From the NCBI GenBank assembly GCA_013166835.1, contig JABLTI010000009.1, forward strand, positions 1 through 47,593: 47,593 nucleotides of DNA, written 5' to 3'. Position 1 is the stretch's first letter. Every line of letters begins with the position of its first letter. This document shows positions 34,440 through 41,154 of the stretch, piece by piece. Both the position numbers and the translations under genes were made by a program. The DNA is from Promethearchaeati archaeon (lineage in GTDB: Archaea > Asgardarchaeota > Heimdallarchaeia > JABLTI01). The notes under the pieces were generated by a model, which saw nothing but the letters and a program-made list of their open reading frames with translations, made no database searches and was not told the origin of the DNA.

Positions 34440-35927
34440 TTGAATTCTTTTGAAAAAACAAAACCTGAAAATCCCTTAATTTCCTCTAACAAGGAAGATT
34501 TTAAATTAGAGAGAAAAATCTCTAAAAAAGATTTCCTGAAGGATATCAACTTTTACGTCACTAAAGTATTGGAAGTGCATCCAGAACCTTTTAGAATAAT
34601 TACTAAAGATCAGTTTGTTAATCAAATAGCGAAGATTAAGGAAGAAATTATTGCCTCTGAGAATGAAGAATTTGATATATTTGAGTGTTATTTTTATATG
34701 CTTGAAATTGCAGCATTAATTCAAGATGGACATACAAGGGTAGTAAATCCACTATCTCAATTCTATGATTATTTAATAAGGAACCGAAGCTTTTTTCCAT
34801 TTGATATTATTATATGTCAAAATCATTTCTTTCTAAGAGAAAATTGGAATGATTCAGGTATACCATTAGGTTCTGAAATTCTATCAATAAATGGATTAAA
34901 ATTAGAAGCAATGTTTAAAGAAACAATCAAATTTTCATCAGGAACTTTTGATGAATATAAAAAAGTATACTGGTGTGAGCTTTTCACAGGAATCCTAGAA
35001 TTTTATTATAAAATTAGTGCCCCTTGGACTATTGAGTATAGAGATAAACTCGGTATAAAAACAATTACCATTGATGTAATAGAATGGACAGAAGAATTGA
35101 AGAATAAAATCTATGAAAAAAGATATCTCTATTCTCATTACACAGTACGAGTAAAGAATGAAGAAGTACCTGTTTTAGTTTTACCAAGTTTGAATTTCAG
35201 TTTTGAATCACCATTCAAAACGGATCTTGATTATTTCTTTGCCAAATACAAAGAAAATAACTATCTTATAATCGATATGAGAAGGAATCTTGGAGGTAAT
35301 GGAATTCTTGGACATTATATCTTAAATCATCTAATAAAAGGTGATACTACTCTGGAAACACATACTTGTTTTGATTTTAAAGCTAGTAAACTCCTCAAGG
35401 AATATATTTCTTTTAGGATTAATTCCTATTTGTATAACGAAAAGATGCCTGTTGACCAACGCAATATTCAAACATATAAACAACTTACAAATGATAGTTC
35501 AAATGCTAGGTTTAACATTAGTGTTCTAGAAGCTAAAGAAAATGATTTTGTTTCAAAAGAGCTTATGAGTCTCGAGCCGATTGAGAGTAAAGCAAAGTTC
35601 AAAGGAAAGGTCTTCTACCTTATTTCAGCTGAAACTTTTTCTGCCGGGGTGGTAACTGCAGCAGCATTTAAACATAACAAATTAGGAGTAGTATTGGGCA
35701 GAGAAACAGGTGGAAGAATTGGATTCTTTAGTGACCCATTAGTTCTTAGTTTACCTAATTCAAACCTTGCAGTAACCCTTCCAGTAGCCATTATGGATCT
35801 TGTTGGAGAAAAGTTAGAAAGAGGGGTTATTCCTGATAACAAGGTTGAATATACTCAAGCTGATTACCTTAATCAATTAGATAAAGACCTAGTTAAAGTT
35901 AAGAAGCTCATTAGGAACGATTTATAG
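34440..35927 (+). CDS. S41-family peptidase
   Basis: QDGHT, GSEILSING (PDZ-like), LIIDMRRNLGGN, TFSAG, GRETGG, GVIPD. Confidence 0.9.
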   Translation: MNSFEKTKPENPLISSNKEDFKLERKISKKDFLKDINFYVTKVLEVHPEPFRIITKDQFVNQIAKIKEEIIASENEEFDIFECYFYMLEIAALIQDGHTRVVNPLSQFYDYLIRNRSFFPFDIIICQNHFFLRENWNDSGIPLGSEILSINGLKLEAMFKETIKFSSGTFDEYKKVYWCELFTGILEFYYKISAPWTIEYRDKLGIKTITIDVIEWTEELKNKIYEKRYLYSHYTVRVKNEEVPVLVLPSLNFSFESPFKTDLDYFFAKYKENNYLIIDMRRNLGGNGILGHYILNHLIKGDTTLETHTCFDFKASKLLKEYISFRINSYLYNEKMPVDQRNIQTYKQLTNDSSNARFNISVLEAKENDFVSKELMSLEPIESKAKFKGKVFYLISAETFSAGVVTAAAFKHNKLGVVLGRETGGRIGFFSDPLVLSLPNSNLAVTLPVAIMDLVGEKLERGVIPDNKVEYTQADYLNQLDKDLVKVKKLIRNDL

Positions 35928-36222
35928 TATTTTGATTTTTTTCCCTTTTTTCTTTTTTTACCAGAGCTATTGAAAATCCTTCGATTAAGAATATCTAAAT
36001 AGTTGTTAGAATAGTTATTTTTTAACTGGGTGTTATTAATTGAAAGATAATAGGTGGCTATTTATTTCCAGTCATTTTATTTTTTCCTAAGAATTTCATA
36101 CAGTTTTTTTAGAACTATTTTTTTATTTTACTTAAGAAAATATATCATCACTTTTATTTATACTAGAAATTACCTTGAAAACAACTTAAAGCTAAAATAA
36201 ACCTATAGGTTTTTGATTAAAT

Positions 36223-36642
36223 ATGGCAGATACAAAAAAAATGGCTATTGTTGTACATTCAGGTACACTTGATTTAGCCTATCCACCATTAATGCTCGCT
36301 GCAGCAGCAGGAGCCAGTGACATGGAAGTTGATATCTTCTTCACTTTCTGGGGTTTAAACCTCTTAAAGAAGAAAGGTCTTAAACGAGCAAAGTTACCTG
36401 GTGCGTGGCGAATGGGTACAGGCATGATGAAAATGATGATCAAGCGAACTGGCATGGCAACCTTACCAGATCTTTTAGAAGGTATCCTTGAGACAGGCAA
36501 AGTAAGACTTTGGGCTTGTACTGCAACTATGGATATTATGATGGTTAAAAAGGAACAATTAATCTCAGAAGTAACAGGTTACATGGGAGCAGCAGGATTT
36601 TTAGATATTGCTGCAGATTGTGACATACAATTATTCATATAA
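36223..36642 (+). CDS. DsrE2-like (DsrE/DsrF/DrsH-like family) protein
   Basis: SGTLDLAYPPLMLA, FFTFWGL, WACTATMD, GAAGFL. Confidence 0.9.
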   Translation: MADTKKMAIVVHSGTLDLAYPPLMLAAAAGASDMEVDIFFTFWGLNLLKKKGLKRAKLPGAWRMGTGMMKMMIKRTGMATLPDLLEGILETGKVRLWACTATMDIMMVKKEQLISEVTGYMGAAGFLDIAADCDIQLFI

Positions 36643-36653
36643 GGTGATTTTAA

Positions 36654-36893
36654 ATGACAGATATGCCAACTGCGGATAAAACAATTGATTGTCGCGACAT
36701 GCAATGTCCTATGCCAATCCTAAAAGCTAAGAAAGAGATACAAAAAATCGAAGTAGGCCAAACATTAGAAGTTCTTTCAAATGATCCTGGTTCTAAAGAA
36801 GATTTTCCACGGTGGGCTAAGCGAACTGGCAACGAATTTCTTGGCGTCTTTGACGACGGTGACACTCATTACTTTATAAAAAGAAAGGTATAA
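36654..36893 (+). CDS. tusA: TusA-family sulfurtransferase
   Basis: DCRDMQCPMPILK, VLSNDPGS, W..RTG; AGGTGA SD. Confidence 0.93.
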   Translation: MTDMPTADKTIDCRDMQCPMPILKAKKEIQKIEVGQTLEVLSNDPGSKEDFPRWAKRTGNEFLGVFDDGDTHYFIKRKV

Positions 36894-36966
36894 CTTATTC
36901 TCTTTTATTTTTTCTTTTTGAATTTTTTTTATTATATTTCGATAGTTATCTGATATACCATAAAAA

Positions 36967-36982
36967 CGGTAAACTTTAAAAG
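36967..36982 (+). promoter_or_regulatory. Putative BRE/TATA promoter for the 5S precursor
   Basis: CGGTAAAC-TTTAAAAG about 25 nt upstream of where the pairing leader (about 37001) begins. Confidence 0.55.
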
Positions 36983-37025
36983 CAAAAGATGAAACGAAAG
37001 AATACGCAGAAACTCATCACCGGAA

Positions 37026-37145
37026 GTTAAGCCTTCAAACGTAGTGGTAATTACTGATCTGAGCGATCGTTCGGGAACATCATTAAGCTGCGTTGCGACG
37101 CGGTCAAAGCTGGAGGGTAACACCCGGACTCGTCCGATCCCGGAA
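37026..37145 (+). rRNA. rrf: 5S rRNA, circularly permuted gene (3' part 37026-37093, linker 37094-37097, 5' part 37098-37145) inside a BHB-like processing stem (37009-37157)
   Basis: 5S 3' motifs GTTAAGCC..TACTG..GGGAA come before 5S 5' motifs CGGTCAAAGC..AACACCCGG..CCGATCCCGGAA; helices I (ACGCGGT/GCTGCGT), II (TGGAGG/CCTTCA), III (CCGG/CCGG with AA bulge) and V (TAGTGGT/ATCATTA) all pair; length 120 nt. Confidence 0.9.
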
Positions 37146-37355
37146 ATGGTGGGTTTCGTTGCTTATTTATCCCATAAATCGTCATTTCTCTTTCTCCTTT
37201 GTAATAACGATTACCACTATCTCATTTACTCCACGAAACCCCTCATTACAAGCAGTTTTTCTAATTTCTTCCTTTTCCACCTGTCTCCAAGCAATCTCAC
37301 CCACTTTTCTTGAGTTGTTTACTGATTAAGGAAATGGATAATTTTATTCTAATCA

Positions 37356-37971
37356 CTATTTTGTCAAAGTGACCTTCATTCCAGCAATCACATTGCAATG
37401 GAATTATGCTTTTTTGAACAATTTTTTAGGATTATTACCAAATTTTTTTATGGCATTCCTGTCAAAAATGTAATCTATATTTAAATTACTAAATGCAAAA
37501 TCTGTGAAATATGGTCTCCGCTCACCTGTGAAAAATTTGAAAGTTCCTTCAGTAATAAAGTGTTTATGTGTTGGATCAGAGTAAGCATTTTTATGATTCC
37601 AATAGGTAATCCTGATTTTCAATTGCCCACCAAGTTTTAGTAATATATAGCATTCACCAACAACTGCCATCATATCGTCTAAGTGTTCTAAAATATCATT
37701 CATTATTATTAAATCAAATGAACCATCCTCGAAACCTCTCTAATGATAAGAGTTTAAATCTTGTATGATGTCAACATTATCCAAAGCAACAATATCAATG
37801 CCTATTGCACCTGGAGTTTTTGCTGTTCCACAACCTACATCTAATATTTTTTATTTGGATCTGGTTCTATGAAAGGTTTTTGAATTGCTTTTGTTTTTAA
37901 ACCAAAAATCTTTCTGAGTTTTCTCGTAATTCTAAAGCTGAGTTTATGCTTGAATTGAACTTTTCAACCAT
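37356..37971 (-). pseudogene. Class I SAM-dependent methyltransferase pseudogene (glycan-locus type)
   Basis: LDVGCG..K..GAIGID..DIIQDLN, FDLIIMNDILEHL, AYSDPTH; broken by frameshifts and in-frame stops (SYH*RG; KKA*FHCNV). Confidence 0.8.
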
Positions 37972-37972
37972 T

Positions 37973-38920
37973 CTATTTTCTCCTATATTTTCCCAGTATC
38001 TTTTTCAAAGATGAACGTAACGTCATTTTAGCCCATATATATTCAATCCATTCTACATTAGTTTCCTTGACCCAAGATTTTGCTTCTTCGTCATTAAAAG
38101 CATCAATTTTTCTAAGAGCTTCGATTGCTCCAAGAACGATTTTTAAAAGATAGTCTTTTCCTGGATTGCAATACTTCACAATGCCTTTCCACTGCATATC
38201 ATAAATCCGTCTTTCCCATTTTACATCTCTTACTCTTTTAACTTGAGGAATAATTTGCAAATCTGGTTCTTTTTCTCCTTTCTTTGCTTGCATTTGATGG
38301 TAATGAAAAGTGTCTAAAAATTTCATATAATTATCCATGCCAACTAATTCTGCAATAATTATATCCTCATTCCGTTGCAAATAATCATCTTCAACTACAG
38401 CAATTGCTTCTTGCATTCTTTTAGTGTTACCGAATTGACTACCACTATAAGCTCTTTCTCTTTCAGTTTGCTTAATATCATCCCATAATACTAAAGAAAT
38501 CTTTTTTCTAGCACATTCAAACCAGGATTTCTCTTCTCTATGCCCCCACATTGCATCAAACCAACTTTCAGGTAGAAAAACGTCACTGTGTAGATATATC
38601 ATATATTCTGTTTCACTAGCCTCGATTAATTTCTTTATACTAAAACCTTGACTTTTGAAATCATGTTGGTCAAAAACTACTACTCTTGGAAATTTTTTAA
38701 GAATTTCAAGACTATTGTCTGTAGAACCACCGTCACCTATTAGTAAACGTTTTATCGGTATCCTCTTATAAAAATTAAGTAAACTCTTTTCAAAATATTG
38801 ATTTGAATTAAGCAGAGGAATGATAACATCAACAGCACGTTCTTTATCTGTTTCATATCTATCTACAAAATCATTATCAAATAAAATTTCAAACAATTCA
38901 TCATAACTCACATTCTCCAT
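37973..38920 (-). CDS. Glycosyltransferase family 2 protein
   Basis: VDVIIPLLN, IGDGGSTDNS, YLHSDV, RNED; GGAGTG SD. Confidence 0.88.
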   Translation of the reverse strand: MENVSYDELFEILFDNDFVDRYETDKERAVDVIIPLLNSNQYFEKSLLNFYKRIPIKRLLIGDGGSTDNSLEILKKFPRVVVFDQHDFKSQGFSIKKLIEASETEYMIYLHSDVFLPESWFDAMWGHREEKSWFECARKKISLVLWDDIKQTERERAYSGSQFGNTKRMQEAIAVVEDDYLQRNEDIIIAELVGMDNYMKFLDTFHYHQMQAKKGEKEPDLQIIPQVKRVRDVKWERRIYDMQWKGIVKYCNPGKDYLLKIVLGAIEALRKIDAFNDEEAKSWVKETNVEWIEYIWAKMTLRSSLKKILGKYRRK

Positions 38921-39250
38921 TTTTAATCACTCCTAATTTGTGTAATTCTTCTTCGCTTATTTCTCTTTCGCTTTCTTTTATCACCAATTAATCAACATAT
39001 ACAATAAATCATAACACAAAAAAATAAAGAACATACAATATAAACCAAACATTCCCACCACATCATTTTTGCTCTTTCTCCTTTTTTTCAATTGGAAAAT
39101 CAAAATCATGTAGGGGAGCCGCAGTAATTTTCGGTTACTTGAAAAAGTTTGAAAGAAACTATCAATTCTATGTGTATCCACATGAAAAACGGTTTCTGGG
39201 ACGATTTGCCCTAGAAATGGTGGGTTTCGTACCTCTCGATTCCTTTTTTA

Positions 39251-39607
39251 TTAGAATTCATCTTCCACATCGAAAGCTAATTTGCCAGCCTCTTTTGTGA
39301 GTAAACTAAAATCAATTTTGTGTTTCCCAGGTTCAATATTACCTTCTATTCTAAAAGTAAAAGTATCTCCTTTGGTTAACTTGAAGGGATTTTCTTTATT
39401 GACATCCACTAATTTAACAACTACATCATCATTAATCAAGACTTTTATTTTGTCAACATCAAAATCTTGCTCATCTATCTTTATTGGATCTAAACCAATA
39501 ATTGTTGCTGGATAGATATTGTTCTGCAATTGAAAGGTAATTTCATTTGCATCTTGCTTCAAACTACCATTTAGATAGAGTTTTCTTAACATTACTTTAG
39601 GTATCAT
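39251..39607 (-). CDS. Conserved hypothetical beta-sandwich protein
   Basis: IPKVMLRKLYLNGSLK...GKHKI; AGGAG SD; function not assignable. Confidence 0.7.
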   Translation of the reverse strand: MIPKVMLRKLYLNGSLKQDANEITFQLQNNIYPATIIGLDPIKIDEQDFDVDKIKVLINDDVVVKLVDVNKENPFKLTKGDTFTFRIEGNIEPGKHKIDFSLLTKEAGKLAFDVEDEF

Positions 39608-39666
39608 AGAACTATACTCCTGCTATTTTATACAAATATCTTAGTGGTTTTTTAAATTTTGTTAAT

Positions 39667-40959
39667 TTATGGAAAGGCTGATTTTAGAAATTCGAAAATG
39701 TGTTTCTTAGATATTTTTGATTCACCTCTTACTCGAGGATTAAACACATAACCTACTCTTCCAACCTTTGTTTCTTTCTTGCGTGAGTGTTTCAATAATT
39801 CAAACATCACTTTGTAACCCTTTGGTCGGAAACCTTTCGGATGTTTTTCTATCACCATTTTGGAATATTCAGTTTCTCCACCGAAGAATCCACTCATAAC
39901 ATCTCCACAACTCGCAGAGCGATGAATCCAATGTGAAAATTTTCCTATAACGCTTGCACCCCAAGATATTACCCTCCTTGAGAAAGGCCAATCGGGGATT
40001 TCATCTCTTTCACCAATGACGAAATTAAATCCTTCTCGGAGTCTAATAGCAATCTCTCCTACTTTCTCTGGTGGATGTTGAAAATCACAATCCATAACAA
40101 TGAAATATTTTGTTTCAGTCATCTTGATGGCATCAAGTACACTGATAGTTAATCCATGAATCTCTTCAGTTTCCCTATCTAGTAAAAGGAAATCAGGATT
40201 CGTTTCACTAAATTCGCGGACTTGTTCTCTTGTACCATCTTTTGATCCATCATCAGCAACAATGAGCTTAATACCTTTGTAATTTTCATTCATGTGTTCC
40301 ATTAATGGTCCAATGTTTTCATTTTCATTGAAAGTAGGTGTGATTAATGTAATATCGCTAAAATCCATATCTGGAGGAACTATTATTGGTTCTTCGGGGA
40401 CTTTCTCTATCACATCAAATGTCCAAACTTCATTCCACATGTAATTCCACAGGACTGTAATAACAAATGCAAAGGCACTTGCAGCAAGAGTAGCATTATC
40501 TATATTCGGAACAACTTTATGGAATTGTTTTGTAAAGGTAGTTGTTAAAAGATATTTAAGAACCGCGCCAGAAGCTCCTACAATTGCATATTTGATGAAT
40601 TGAGTTCCAACCCTTTCGTCTCTCGAACCACTAAAAGTCCATAACTTGTTCAAAATATAATTAGAAGTCGTAGCTGCTGCAATACCCATAGCAATAGCAA
40701 TTAAACCTTTAATTGTAAATTTAAAAATCCAGTAAGTGTATTCTGTATCAAGAATAGTTGTTATACTTCCAATAACAAATTCTGTTAGAGCTAAAGCTCC
40801 TAAATTAATCCCTAAACCAACTAAAGAAACAACGGTAAATTTGAGAAGTCGTTGCTTAAAACCAGCACCTAATCGTTTGAAGCGATCCTTGACACTGGTT
40901 TTTAGGGGTTTTTCTTTAATTTCCTTTTCGTTTTTTAGCTCTATTTGCTCATCCGGCAT
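39667..40959 (-). CDS. GtrA-like membrane domain fused N-terminally to a polyprenol-phosphate-mannose synthase-like GT2 domain
   Basis: KFTVVSLVGLGIN..NYILNKLWTF (GtrA); ITPTFNE, ADDGSKDGT, MDCDFQHPPE, DVMSGFF, RVRGESK (DPM1-like); likely ATG 40959 with AGGAG SD. Confidence 0.88.
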   Translation of the reverse strand: MPDEQIELKNEKEIKEKPLKTSVKDRFKRLGAGFKQRLLKFTVVSLVGLGINLGALALTEFVIGSITTILDTEYTYWIFKFTIKGLIAIAMGIAAATTSNYILNKLWTFSGSRDERVGTQFIKYAIVGASGAVLKYLLTTTFTKQFHKVVPNIDNATLAASAFAFVITVLWNYMWNEVWTFDVIEKVPEEPIIVPPDMDFSDITLITPTFNENENIGPLMEHMNENYKGIKLIVADDGSKDGTREQVREFSETNPDFLLLDRETEEIHGLTISVLDAIKMTETKYFIVMDCDFQHPPEKVGEIAIRLREGFNFVIGERDEIPDWPFSRRVISWGASVIGKFSHWIHRSASCGDVMSGFFGGETEYSKMVIEKHPKGFRPKGYKVMFELLKHSRKKETKVGRVGYVFNPRVRGESKISKKHIFEFLKSAFP

Positions 40960-41154
40960 GTTGTGGTTTCTCCTAACGTAGTCAAAATCCATCAAGCTAT
41001 TAGGTAATAAGGTATGACAAAATTCATTATTAAAACTATTCAATAAAATCAAAACATGCACATCAAGATTGGTTCATCCTTTCTCCCCCCCTCCAAAAAT
41101 TTCGAGGGTATAAATTATTAAAATAAAAGAACTAATCTTGATATGATGAATTAA

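Follow-up and report, generated by a model that had tools for sequence, protein, structure and literature searches.

A circularly permuted 5S rRNA gene with a bulge-helix-bulge motif and a ligated RNA junction in Asgard archaea

Introduction

How does a ribosome obtain its 5S ribosomal RNA (rRNA) when the two halves of the gene stand in swapped order? The question is raised by a locus on contig JABLTI010000009.1 of a Promethearchaeati archaeon (Asgardarchaeota; assembly GCA_013166835.1), whose whole analysed stretch of 47,593 nucleotides is called the window here. On the plus strand, the 3' part of a 5S rRNA gene (37026-37093) comes first, followed by the four nucleotides 37094-37097 and then by the 5' part (37098-37145). 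An initial annotation, made from the sequence, had proposed that splicing at a bulge-helix-bulge (BHB) motif would turn this circularly permuted gene into a circular 5S rRNA of 120 nt. Our results lead us to conclude that the locus is very probably the single functional 5S rRNA gene of its genome, in permuted form, from which the endonuclease EndA most likely excises 120 nt that the ligase RtcB would close into a circular 5S rRNA.

According to the available part of the report on circularised Heimdallarchaeum genomes, 5S genes could not be predicted in them (PMC8813620). The swapped halves described here explain the apparent absence of 5S genes in these close relatives of eukaryotes.

Results

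Architecture and identity of the locus

The elements of the permuted gene and of its flanks are as follows.

37009-37019, plus strand: leader strand of the outer BHB helix (h), GAAACTCATCA; pairs with 37147-37157 (11 bp, 2 of them G-U).
37020-37023, plus strand: 5' strand of the central 4-bp BHB helix (H), CCGG; pairs with 37140-37143.
37024-37026, plus strand: 5' bulge AAG, predicted cut 37025/37026 (geometry from sequence; the RNA joint fits within the 6-nt CCGGAA ambiguity).
37026-37093, plus strand: 3' part of 5S rRNA, from G52 onward, with the helix II 3' strand, helices V/IV and loop E, and the helix I 3' strand (RF00001 pieces and hidden Markov model, HMM).
37094-37097, plus strand: UGCG tetraloop, capping helix I at the site of the normal 5S ends (sequence; present in RNA contigs).
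37098-37145, plus strand: 5' part of 5S rRNA, with the helix I 5' strand, loop A, the helix II 5' strand, helix III and loop C, up to the AA bulge (RF00001 pieces and HMM).
37140-37143, plus strand: 5S helix III 3' strand CCGG, doubling in the precursor as the 3' strand of the central BHB helix.
37144-37146, plus strand: 3' bulge AAA, predicted cut 37145/37146 (sequence; the RNA joint is readable as 37145 joined to 37026).
37147-37157, plus strand: trailer strand of the outer BHB helix, TGGTGGGTTTC; pairs with 37009-37019.

Reading the sequence from 36800 to 37400 gives the order GAAACTCATCA, CCGG and AAG at the leader side, then GCTGCGT (37087-37093), TGCG and ACGCGGT (37098-37104) around the former ends of helix I, and finally CCGG, AAA and TGGTGGGTTTC. 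Every coordinate that the initial annotation had assigned to the swapped halves, the TGCG loop, the paired flanks, the CCGG/CCGG helix and the AAG and AAA bulges is exact in the sequence.

At gathering thresholds Rfam gives no match across the 47.6 kb of the window, and its 5S model (RF00001) nowhere reaches the score of 38 bits required. With a permissive threshold RF00001 yields two partial matches in reversed order, as had been anticipated: model positions of about 49-120 align to 37020-37096 with 16.4 bits, and positions 27-51 to 37122-37145 with 13.8 bits. These low scores arise because the gene order is swapped, and such a failure is expected of a permuted gene.

An HMM built from 12 colinear Asgard 5S genes likewise matches the native locus as two pieces in swapped order. 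When 37098-37145 and 37026-37093 were rearranged by script into one piece, the same model matched it end to end (positions 4-115, 66.2 bits, E 5.6e-22), the single full match that the annotation had predicted, and the letters flanking the new joint are identical to the consensus of the 12 colinear genes. The spliced product agrees with a standard archaeal 5S rRNA in helices I-V, loop A, loop C, the loop E region and its length of 120 nt; it differs at helix I, which is open and of 9 bp in the standard molecule (RF00001) and a closed hairpin of 7 bp with a tetraloop in the permuted one.

We aligned 23 permuted loci with MAFFT (alignment A1; seven coded families and one named record of unknown family) and derived from A1 a covariance model, R1, that spans both the permuted gene and its flanks. 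The window locus scores 153 bits with R1 (E 1.6e-39). This score, together with compensatory changes above controls, shows that the match of the locus to a permuted 5S gene is not due to chance.

The junction in RNA

The stretch is contained in 17 public sequencing runs from 7 studies, 11 of which are recorded as RNA. The share of the sampled words found in the RNA runs is 0.53-0.58, about that of the 120-nt core in the 191-nt query; in three runs of unknown type, DNA-like in this respect, it is 0.74-0.79. Runs X1 and X9 are labelled 'RNA? probably DNA' with a word share like that of the RNA runs, and were not used as evidence. We compared with positions 36900-37300 the contigs of the RNA runs X2, X6 and X13, which come from three studies, and those of the unknown-type run X15.

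Each of the three RNA runs gave one contig of 150 nt, at least 99% alike and covering 37020-37145 only, at depths of 41.6 (X2), 16.9 (X6) and 3.2 (X13); the leader and the trailer are covered by none of the three. In all of them the sequence jumps back by 120 nt at a joint, from 37139 to 37020, and since six letters fit on either side the joint can be read as 37145 joined to 37026. A length of 150 nt, that is 120 + 30, is expected of a closed 120-nt cycle at a word length of 31. All three contigs hold the TGCG linker as well as the new junction, and two have at least 31 letters on either side of the joint.

The joint was found in three of the three RNA runs compared and in no contig of the DNA-like run X15. 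There, one unbranched contig of 646 nt is colinear with the window over 36954-37159 and continues into another strain's flank; X15 represents a related strain because the contig diverges at 37159.

The ligated junction thus exists in RNA. RNA crossing CCCGGAA/GTTAAG and the TGCG linker, which the annotation had proposed to look for, is present in contigs of three libraries from three studies, and the expected restoration of the 5S helix III sequence by ligation is borne out there and by the colinear consensus. The exact excision of 120 nt stands in so far as the RNA contigs are 120-nt cycles; the cut positions are predicted within the six letters of CCGGAA.

A mature RNA that is linear and permuted, nicked at the AA bulge where its ends were never joined, is very unlikely in our judgement. 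A linear permuted 5S rRNA does occur in the mitochondria of brown algae, as the accessible text of PMC4267664 describes, and if the RNA were nicked at the AA bulge, the unbroken strand opposite would presumably keep the two sides together. The RNA contigs of three studies nevertheless cross the junction, for which the genome holds no DNA template, and the conserved 3-4-3 geometry of the BHB would be purposeless in such a molecule.

The helix I tetraloop

Where a normal 5S rRNA has its two ends, the permuted genes carry a hairpin with a stem of 7-13 bp. Among 41 extracted hairpins the loop reads UNCG in 23 (UUCG 12, UGCG 9, UACG 2) and CUCG or CGCG in 4 more, an approximate tally in which 7 of 48 loci failed or were mis-delimited and some hairpins of family f3 were mis-cut. 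The conservation of UNCG looks like selection for a stable cap, which suggests that the hairpin is permanent and favours a mature circle over re-opening at this site.

Permuted tRNAs of Cyanidioschyzon merolae reportedly pass through a circle, to go by the title of a 2007 study by Soma et al. The 5S circle could in the same way be a mere intermediate, re-opened in or near the helix I loop to a linear 5S rRNA with normal ends. Precursors of permuted transfer RNAs (tRNAs) are cleaved and their pieces ligated in the correct order, according to the accessible sections of Valach et al. (PMC4267664), and archaeal 16S circles are regarded as intermediates in the part of PMC12918454 that was available; contigs, moreover, look the same whether the circle is a minor intermediate or the major end product. 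We regard re-opening as unlikely. There is no spacer to remove, as just four nucleotides link the old ends, the frequent UNCG loop sits on a covarying helix I as if selected as a permanent cap, and the RNA contigs run through the loop as closed cycles without branch or end. We infer that the ring, rather than a re-opened form, would be what the ribosome contains.

The splicing motif and its covariation

The precursor would present a central helix of 4 bp, two bulges of 3 nt on opposite strands and an outer helix beside the 3' bulge. The inner helix (h') that the strict form has beside the 5' bulge is absent: from 37027 onward the strand has no partner before 37140 and joins the multi-branch fold of the 5S rRNA. 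Judged by its sequence, the motif is therefore a relaxed (hBH or bulge-helix-loop) BHB, in agreement with the initial proposal. EndA cuts a BHB after the second bulge nucleotide. In nearly all tabulated loci the bulges are AAG/AAA or AAA/GAA, and a cut at that position would always give the canonical ...GGAA-GUUAAG... junction.

The pairs proposed for the precursor are paired in 89.6% of the cells of A1, compared with 68.6% in column shuffles (0 of 500 reach 89.6%) and 38-46% when partners were slid by 1-3 columns. Changes on both sides occur at all 11 pairs of the outer helix, at 7 of 8 pairs of helix II, 7 of 7 of helix V and 2 of 2 inner pairs of helix IV; in helix I they occur at 3 of 7 pairs, and 3 more vary on one side. 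Helix III is counted in A1 only through its 3' strand in the BHB helix, and its own pairing is seen in the RF00001 match and in the folds.

The central helix is paired in 87% of cells across lineages, with at least seven fully paired combinations in the per-locus table (CCGG/CCGG, CTGG/CCGG, CTGG/CCAG, CGGG/CCTG, CAGG/CCTG, CGTG/CACG and CCGC/GCGG) and two further ones read by eye (CCGA/TCGG and CCAG/CTGG). Some lineages have three-pair central helices (CCGA/CCGG, CCGG/ACGG, CTGG/ACGG). The outer helices of relatives range from 5 to 16 bp, every one different in sequence. The per-locus table was made by regular expression; its spurious rows were disregarded, the f20 loci L168 and L199 were mis-delimited and L212 and L213 missed, and the helices of the f20 and f4 loci were read by eye.

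The sequence CCGG occurs three times in the locus, and in the window sequence the 5' copy could alternatively pair with 37125-37128. The minimum free energy (MFE) fold of -51.3 kcal/mol and the BHB-enforced fold of -50.2 kcal/mol lie 1.1 kcal/mol apart. The alternative pairing is impossible in lineages with non-palindromic helices and was rejected.

Copy number and distribution

The assembly has 3.56 Mb and is 84.75% complete, the window being its contig C173. With RF00001 at E<=10, the permuted locus is the sole 5S-like locus of the 3.56-Mb assembly, and R1 gives one match; a colinear 5S copy was not found by RF00001 at E<=10 in this assembly of 84.75% completeness, as the annotation had expected of a functional permuted gene.

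All 31 searched genomes of the window's class carry the permuted locus, 28 of them by nhmmer, alignment or inspection and three (G014, G018, G022) by the covariance model. None of the 31 has an RF00001 match above the cut-off, and class genomes that are 90-96% complete likewise have only the permuted form. Weak RF00001 matches at L027 and L030 were rejected as chance matches without a permuted gene; the true loci of those genomes were found by the other searches. The permutation and the covarying flank stem thus recur in relatives, as had been foreseen.

A dead rearranged remnant, with a true 5S gene that is too divergent or lies in the unassembled 15% of the genome, is scarcely credible to us. 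The incomplete assembly leaves room for it. Against this, the locus is expressed and processed according to the RNA contigs, all its helices covary, the rearranged sequence matches colinear Asgard 5S genes end to end, and the more complete genomes of the class hold no other form.

A misassembly at CCGGAA, or a collapsed 120-nt tandem repeat whose DNA the cyclic RNA contigs would mirror, is extremely unlikely. A 6-nt repeat does stand at both boundaries, and a 120-nt tandem array would by the same reasoning yield a 150-nt cycle at a word length of 31. The single-unit arrangement, however, has different and covarying flanks in 31 of 31 class genomes, among them single-contig ones (the arrangement is seen in the single-contig genomes G016, G026, G031, G041 and G064), and X15 crosses the locus in one unbranched contig without the joint. 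In relatives the leader element is complementary, not identical, to the 3' boundary (CGTG/CACG, CAGG/CCTG), so that no repeat exists there. The idea that the CCGGAA repeat is a duplication scar was rejected on the same observation; the microhomology in the window follows from its palindromic helix and is no duplication remnant. The assembly artefact that the annotation had named among its refuting conditions is thereby set aside.

Across 151 genomes sampled from the phylum, R1 finds the permuted 5S gene in 20 of 27 Asgard families, with 39.9-153 bits and nearly always at full length. The genomes with a match, by family, are as follows.

f1: 1/1
f2: 13/13
f3: 7/7
f4: 4/4
f5: 1/1
f6: 1/1
f7: 4/4
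f8: 1/2
f9: 1/1
f11: 5/5
f12: 1/1
f13: 20/25 (2 of these partial and below 30 bits, G140 and G146)
f17: 3/3
f18: 2/4
f20: 5/5
f21: 1/1
f22: 5/6
f23: 6/7
f24: 2/3
f25: 1/1

RF00001 is above its cut-off in 49 of the 151 genomes. Colinear 5S genes characterise f10 (25/26, with a 53-nt insertion in the 26th), f16 (17/19), f19 (3/5), f14, f26 and f27, where R1 gives only cross-matches of at most 34 bits on normal 5S genes. No sampled family shows both forms, and the one genome of f15 matches neither R1 nor RF00001. The annotation had treated a single locus; the recurrence that it proposed to look for was found, and the extent across the phylum goes beyond what it foresaw, so that the locus is no single-genome oddity.

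Outside Asgard archaea, R1 finds nothing above 32.7 bits in 151 genomes of the phylum of a Methanosuratincola record, and the four best matches there are ordinary 5S genes (RF00001 62-95 bits). In four named non-Asgard archaea, including the Methanosuratincola record, R1 finds nothing above 31.6 bits, these matches being unchecked against RF00001. A permuted 5S gene with this breakpoint was thus not found in the samples of non-Asgard genomes searched. Scanning public genomes with an IUPAC pattern gave at least 120 stretches; among the matches listed, nhmmer identified 5 full-length permuted loci, 1 partial locus that was later confirmed (L150) and 5 weaker partial ones, and the remainder had no nhmmer match at E<=1e-3.

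Enzymes encoded in the genome

The window's genome encodes an EndA of 197 aa with both the N and the C Pfam domains (97.6 bits) and RtcB (571 bits). A second EndA-like open reading frame is interrupted by a contig end. This frame (L176; G000:C96, 1474-1686, minus strand) has no His in its 70 visible residues where the 197-aa paralogue has the conserved His, a lack that, to judge from the residues, would fit a non-catalytic structural subunit. A two-subunit EndA of relaxed specificity may be present.

Discussion

We propose that a short transcript probably begins just past a TATA-like box and ends at a T-rich run. Leader and trailer would pair over 11 bp and the leader CCGG with the helix III 3' strand, so that 4 bp would separate two bulges of 3 nt. 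The tRNA-splicing endonuclease EndA would cut both bulges and free exactly 37026-37145 (120 nt), whose ends RtcB would join; a bond thereby formed between A51 and G52, at the helix III AA bulge, would restore normal 5S connectivity, while the old ends of helix I would remain linked by the UNCG tetraloop. After ligation the RNA would refold with helix III formed, and the product would be a covalently closed 5S rRNA of 120 nt. EndA and RtcB as the acting enzymes, and the exact cuts within CCGGAA, are the parts of this scheme that we infer. Both enzymes would then be indispensable for assembly of the large subunit in these organisms, because an unligated 5S rRNA lacks the restored connectivity.

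Several observations weigh against the conclusion that the locus yields circular 5S rRNA through EndA and RtcB. The RNA evidence consists of assembled contigs and not of raw reads, in which form RNA ends, the depth profile and the circular share are invisible; the X13 contig extends only 25 letters past the joint, below the 31-letter bridging rule; and the three RNA runs have no matched DNA run, X15 coming from another study and a related strain. The MFE fold of the window sequence uses the other CCGG partner (37125-37128) and not the BHB. The motif lacks an inner helix, and its 5' bulge opens into a multi-branch loop that is not cleaved by every EndA type; the second subunit-like frame, which bears on the EndA type encoded here, is incomplete. 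Nor is the motif uniform, as f2 has a leader-side hairpin of about 30 nt between the outer and the central helix. Finally, RF00001 scores 38.4 bits in genome G128 (f6), just above the cut-off.

Permuted RNA genes repaired by the tRNA-splicing machinery are of a known kind; what would be new is the permuted 5S gene and its breadth in Asgard archaea. The accessible sections of Plagens et al. (2015, eLife, PMC4731332) describe a permuted signal recognition particle (SRP) RNA in Thermoproteus tenax and T. uzoniensis that is circularised at a BHB by heterotetrameric EndA, with RtcB as the proposed ligase. Like the 5S rRNA, it is in these sections an essential structured RNA with swapped halves and a BHB at its termini, which are ligated into a circle according to RNA sequencing, and only recognition of the permutation revealed a canonical gene that 'could not be found' before. 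The 5S locus shares with it the upstream 3' part, the single strand and transcription unit, a junction present only in RNA, and a genome encoding EndA and RtcB. It differs in that the RNA is a ribosome component and that most of a phylum is concerned, as opposed to the few species of one genus treated in that source; its break lies at the AA bulge of helix III with the old ends capped by UNCG, and it is known here from sequence and RNA contigs.

The permuted tRNA genes of C. merolae also have the 3' half upstream of the 5' half, as outlined in the available text of PMC4267664. Those genes are eukaryotic and nuclear, and their circle is reportedly an intermediate that end-processing enzymes re-open with removal of a spacer, unlike the 5S rRNA with its old ends joined by a 4-nt loop. 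In archaeal pre-16S and pre-23S rRNA, a BHB in the leader-trailer stem, EndA cleavage and ligation lead to circularisation (PMC12918454, in the part available), and a 23S circle can persist in ribosomes, with circular or permuted 23S rRNA reported in archaea by the accessible portions of PMC7758197 and bioRxiv 10.64898/2026.03.23.713588. Unlike the permuted 5S gene, the 16S and 23S genes are colinear in these portions, and their circularisation is not required for connectivity. For the cultures that it examined, PMC12918454, a 2026 paper, states in its available part that excision and circularisation concern the 16S and 23S species 'but not 5S rRNAs'.

The brown-algal mitochondrial 5S rRNA (Valach et al. 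2014, PMC4267664; Rfam mtPerm-5S) also has a non-standard domain order. From the accessible text, it is no true circular permutation, a 5' hairpin replacing helix I and the ends lying at the three-way junction, and its product is linear and permuted, without BHB or ligation, unlike the Asgard 5S rRNA. A full-text literature search, covering sources other than subscription journals and supplements, found no description of an archaeal permuted or circular 5S rRNA; its sole 'permuted 5S' paper, as far as the text of that paper was accessible, concerns brown-algal mitochondria (PMC4267664). To the extent of the literature searched, neither a circularly permuted 5S gene nor a circular 5S rRNA would have a precedent. 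In 20 of 27 sampled Asgard families the gene would escape standard annotation as well as any genome-quality rule that requires 5S.

The permuted gene may plausibly have arisen from a colinear 5S gene with a BHB intron at 51/52 through tandem duplication and loss of the outer halves, the inner helix of the intron becoming the present leader-trailer helix. Insertions resembling BHB introns do occur in some permuted 5S genes. The clean split between permuted and colinear forms by family offers a discrete character for a disputed phylogeny that bears on the origin of eukaryotes.

Tentatively, and with slightly more doubt than belief, we propose a broader picture. The ribosome of most Asgard archaea, and of every member sampled from the class to which the closest known relatives of eukaryotes belong, would have a covalently closed 5S ring that the tRNA-splicing machinery produces from a permuted gene. 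This permutation would be old and vertically inherited, derived from a BHB intron at 51/52 and moved at least once to a loop C breakpoint. It would then be a rare genomic change able to polarise Asgard phylogeny, and the eukaryotic stem would have branched earlier or reverted to a colinear 5S gene.

Additional observations

Two sequence elements may delimit the transcription unit.

36971-36982, plus strand: TATA-like element AAACTTTAAAAG, about 27-38 nt upstream of the leader helix; putative promoter.
37163-37169, plus strand: T-rich stretch TTATTTA; a possible but weak archaeal termination signal, on sequence grounds.

Of 10 loci in the window's family, 9 have the motif AAACTTTAAA at an equal distance and one has AACTTTTTAAG; T-rich runs follow the trailer in most flanks of relatives. 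The 5S gene is solitary, between a DsrE-like gene and small unannotated frames, and belongs to no rRNA operon; a tRNA scan of the window found no tRNAs. Its neighbours from 34440 to 41061 are an S41 peptidase-like protein, a DsrE/DsrF-like protein, two small frames that match no Pfam family, two family-2 glycosyltransferases, of which one carries a fused GtrA-like domain, and a protein with an HMG-CoA reductase N-terminal domain, genes unrelated to ribosome biogenesis.

Genome G128 has four contigs (C77, C90, C106, C132) that end or begin within the permuted 5S gene, and C90 and C132 (L171, L172) differ in their downstream flanks. This suggests at least two 5S copies that broke the assembly. 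The 38.4-bit RF00001 match of this genome was rejected as a colinear 5S gene, being a spurious match in which the 5' half alone is aligned.

The leader of f2 (L003-L005, L016-L019, L040, L066, L103, L105, L173) has a conserved CAGAAAG-like linker and an 8-bp hairpin with an ATGCGT-type loop, so that the 3' bulge faces a three-way junction; the outer helix is present and covaries despite the inserted hairpin. A second copy in single-contig genomes (L031, L198, L203) lacks this detour and has an abutting helix of 5 bp. In the f3 loci L007-L015, the leader is complementary to the trailer over further long-range stretches outside the BHB helix, such as GTTTGTAATCTCA ... TGAGATACAAAC. The TATA-like boxes of these loci lie about 85-95 nt upstream, which points to precursors longer than in f1.

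A second kind of permuted 5S gene occurs in f13 at L166 (G146:C87:2522-3040, about 190-375), where the break seems to lie in loop C instead of the AA bulge. Its leader CTGG-AA pairs with the helix III 5' strand, the bulges are AAC and ACA, and the flanks comprise a 3-bp GCG/CGC helix, a long-range 13-bp leader-trailer helix (ATAACCACATAAA / TTTATGTGGTTAT) and an extra leader hairpin; L214 (G103) may be of this kind as well.

Loop C carries an insertion of about 29-30 nt in L013/L194 (G015, f3) and, in f13, in L212 (G047) and L213 (G037), with R1 matches of 185-187 nt as opposed to the usual 156 or so. In L213, CCGA...TCGG and ACCA...TGGT flank the insertion, with AAA in between; from these letters the permuted gene seems to contain a second BHB intron. 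In f10, the colinear 5S gene L170 (G148:C2:29256-29407; 32.4 bits, just below the cut-off) has a 53-nt insertion in the helix IV/V arm that may be a 5S intron. In the 1.4-Mb genome G031, a tRNA gene (L164; C1, 14-178, minus strand; Rfam tRNA 41.3 bits) lies about 75 nt downstream of the permuted 5S gene and has two insertions, one of 66 nt within the anticodon arm and one of about 30 nt before the T arm.

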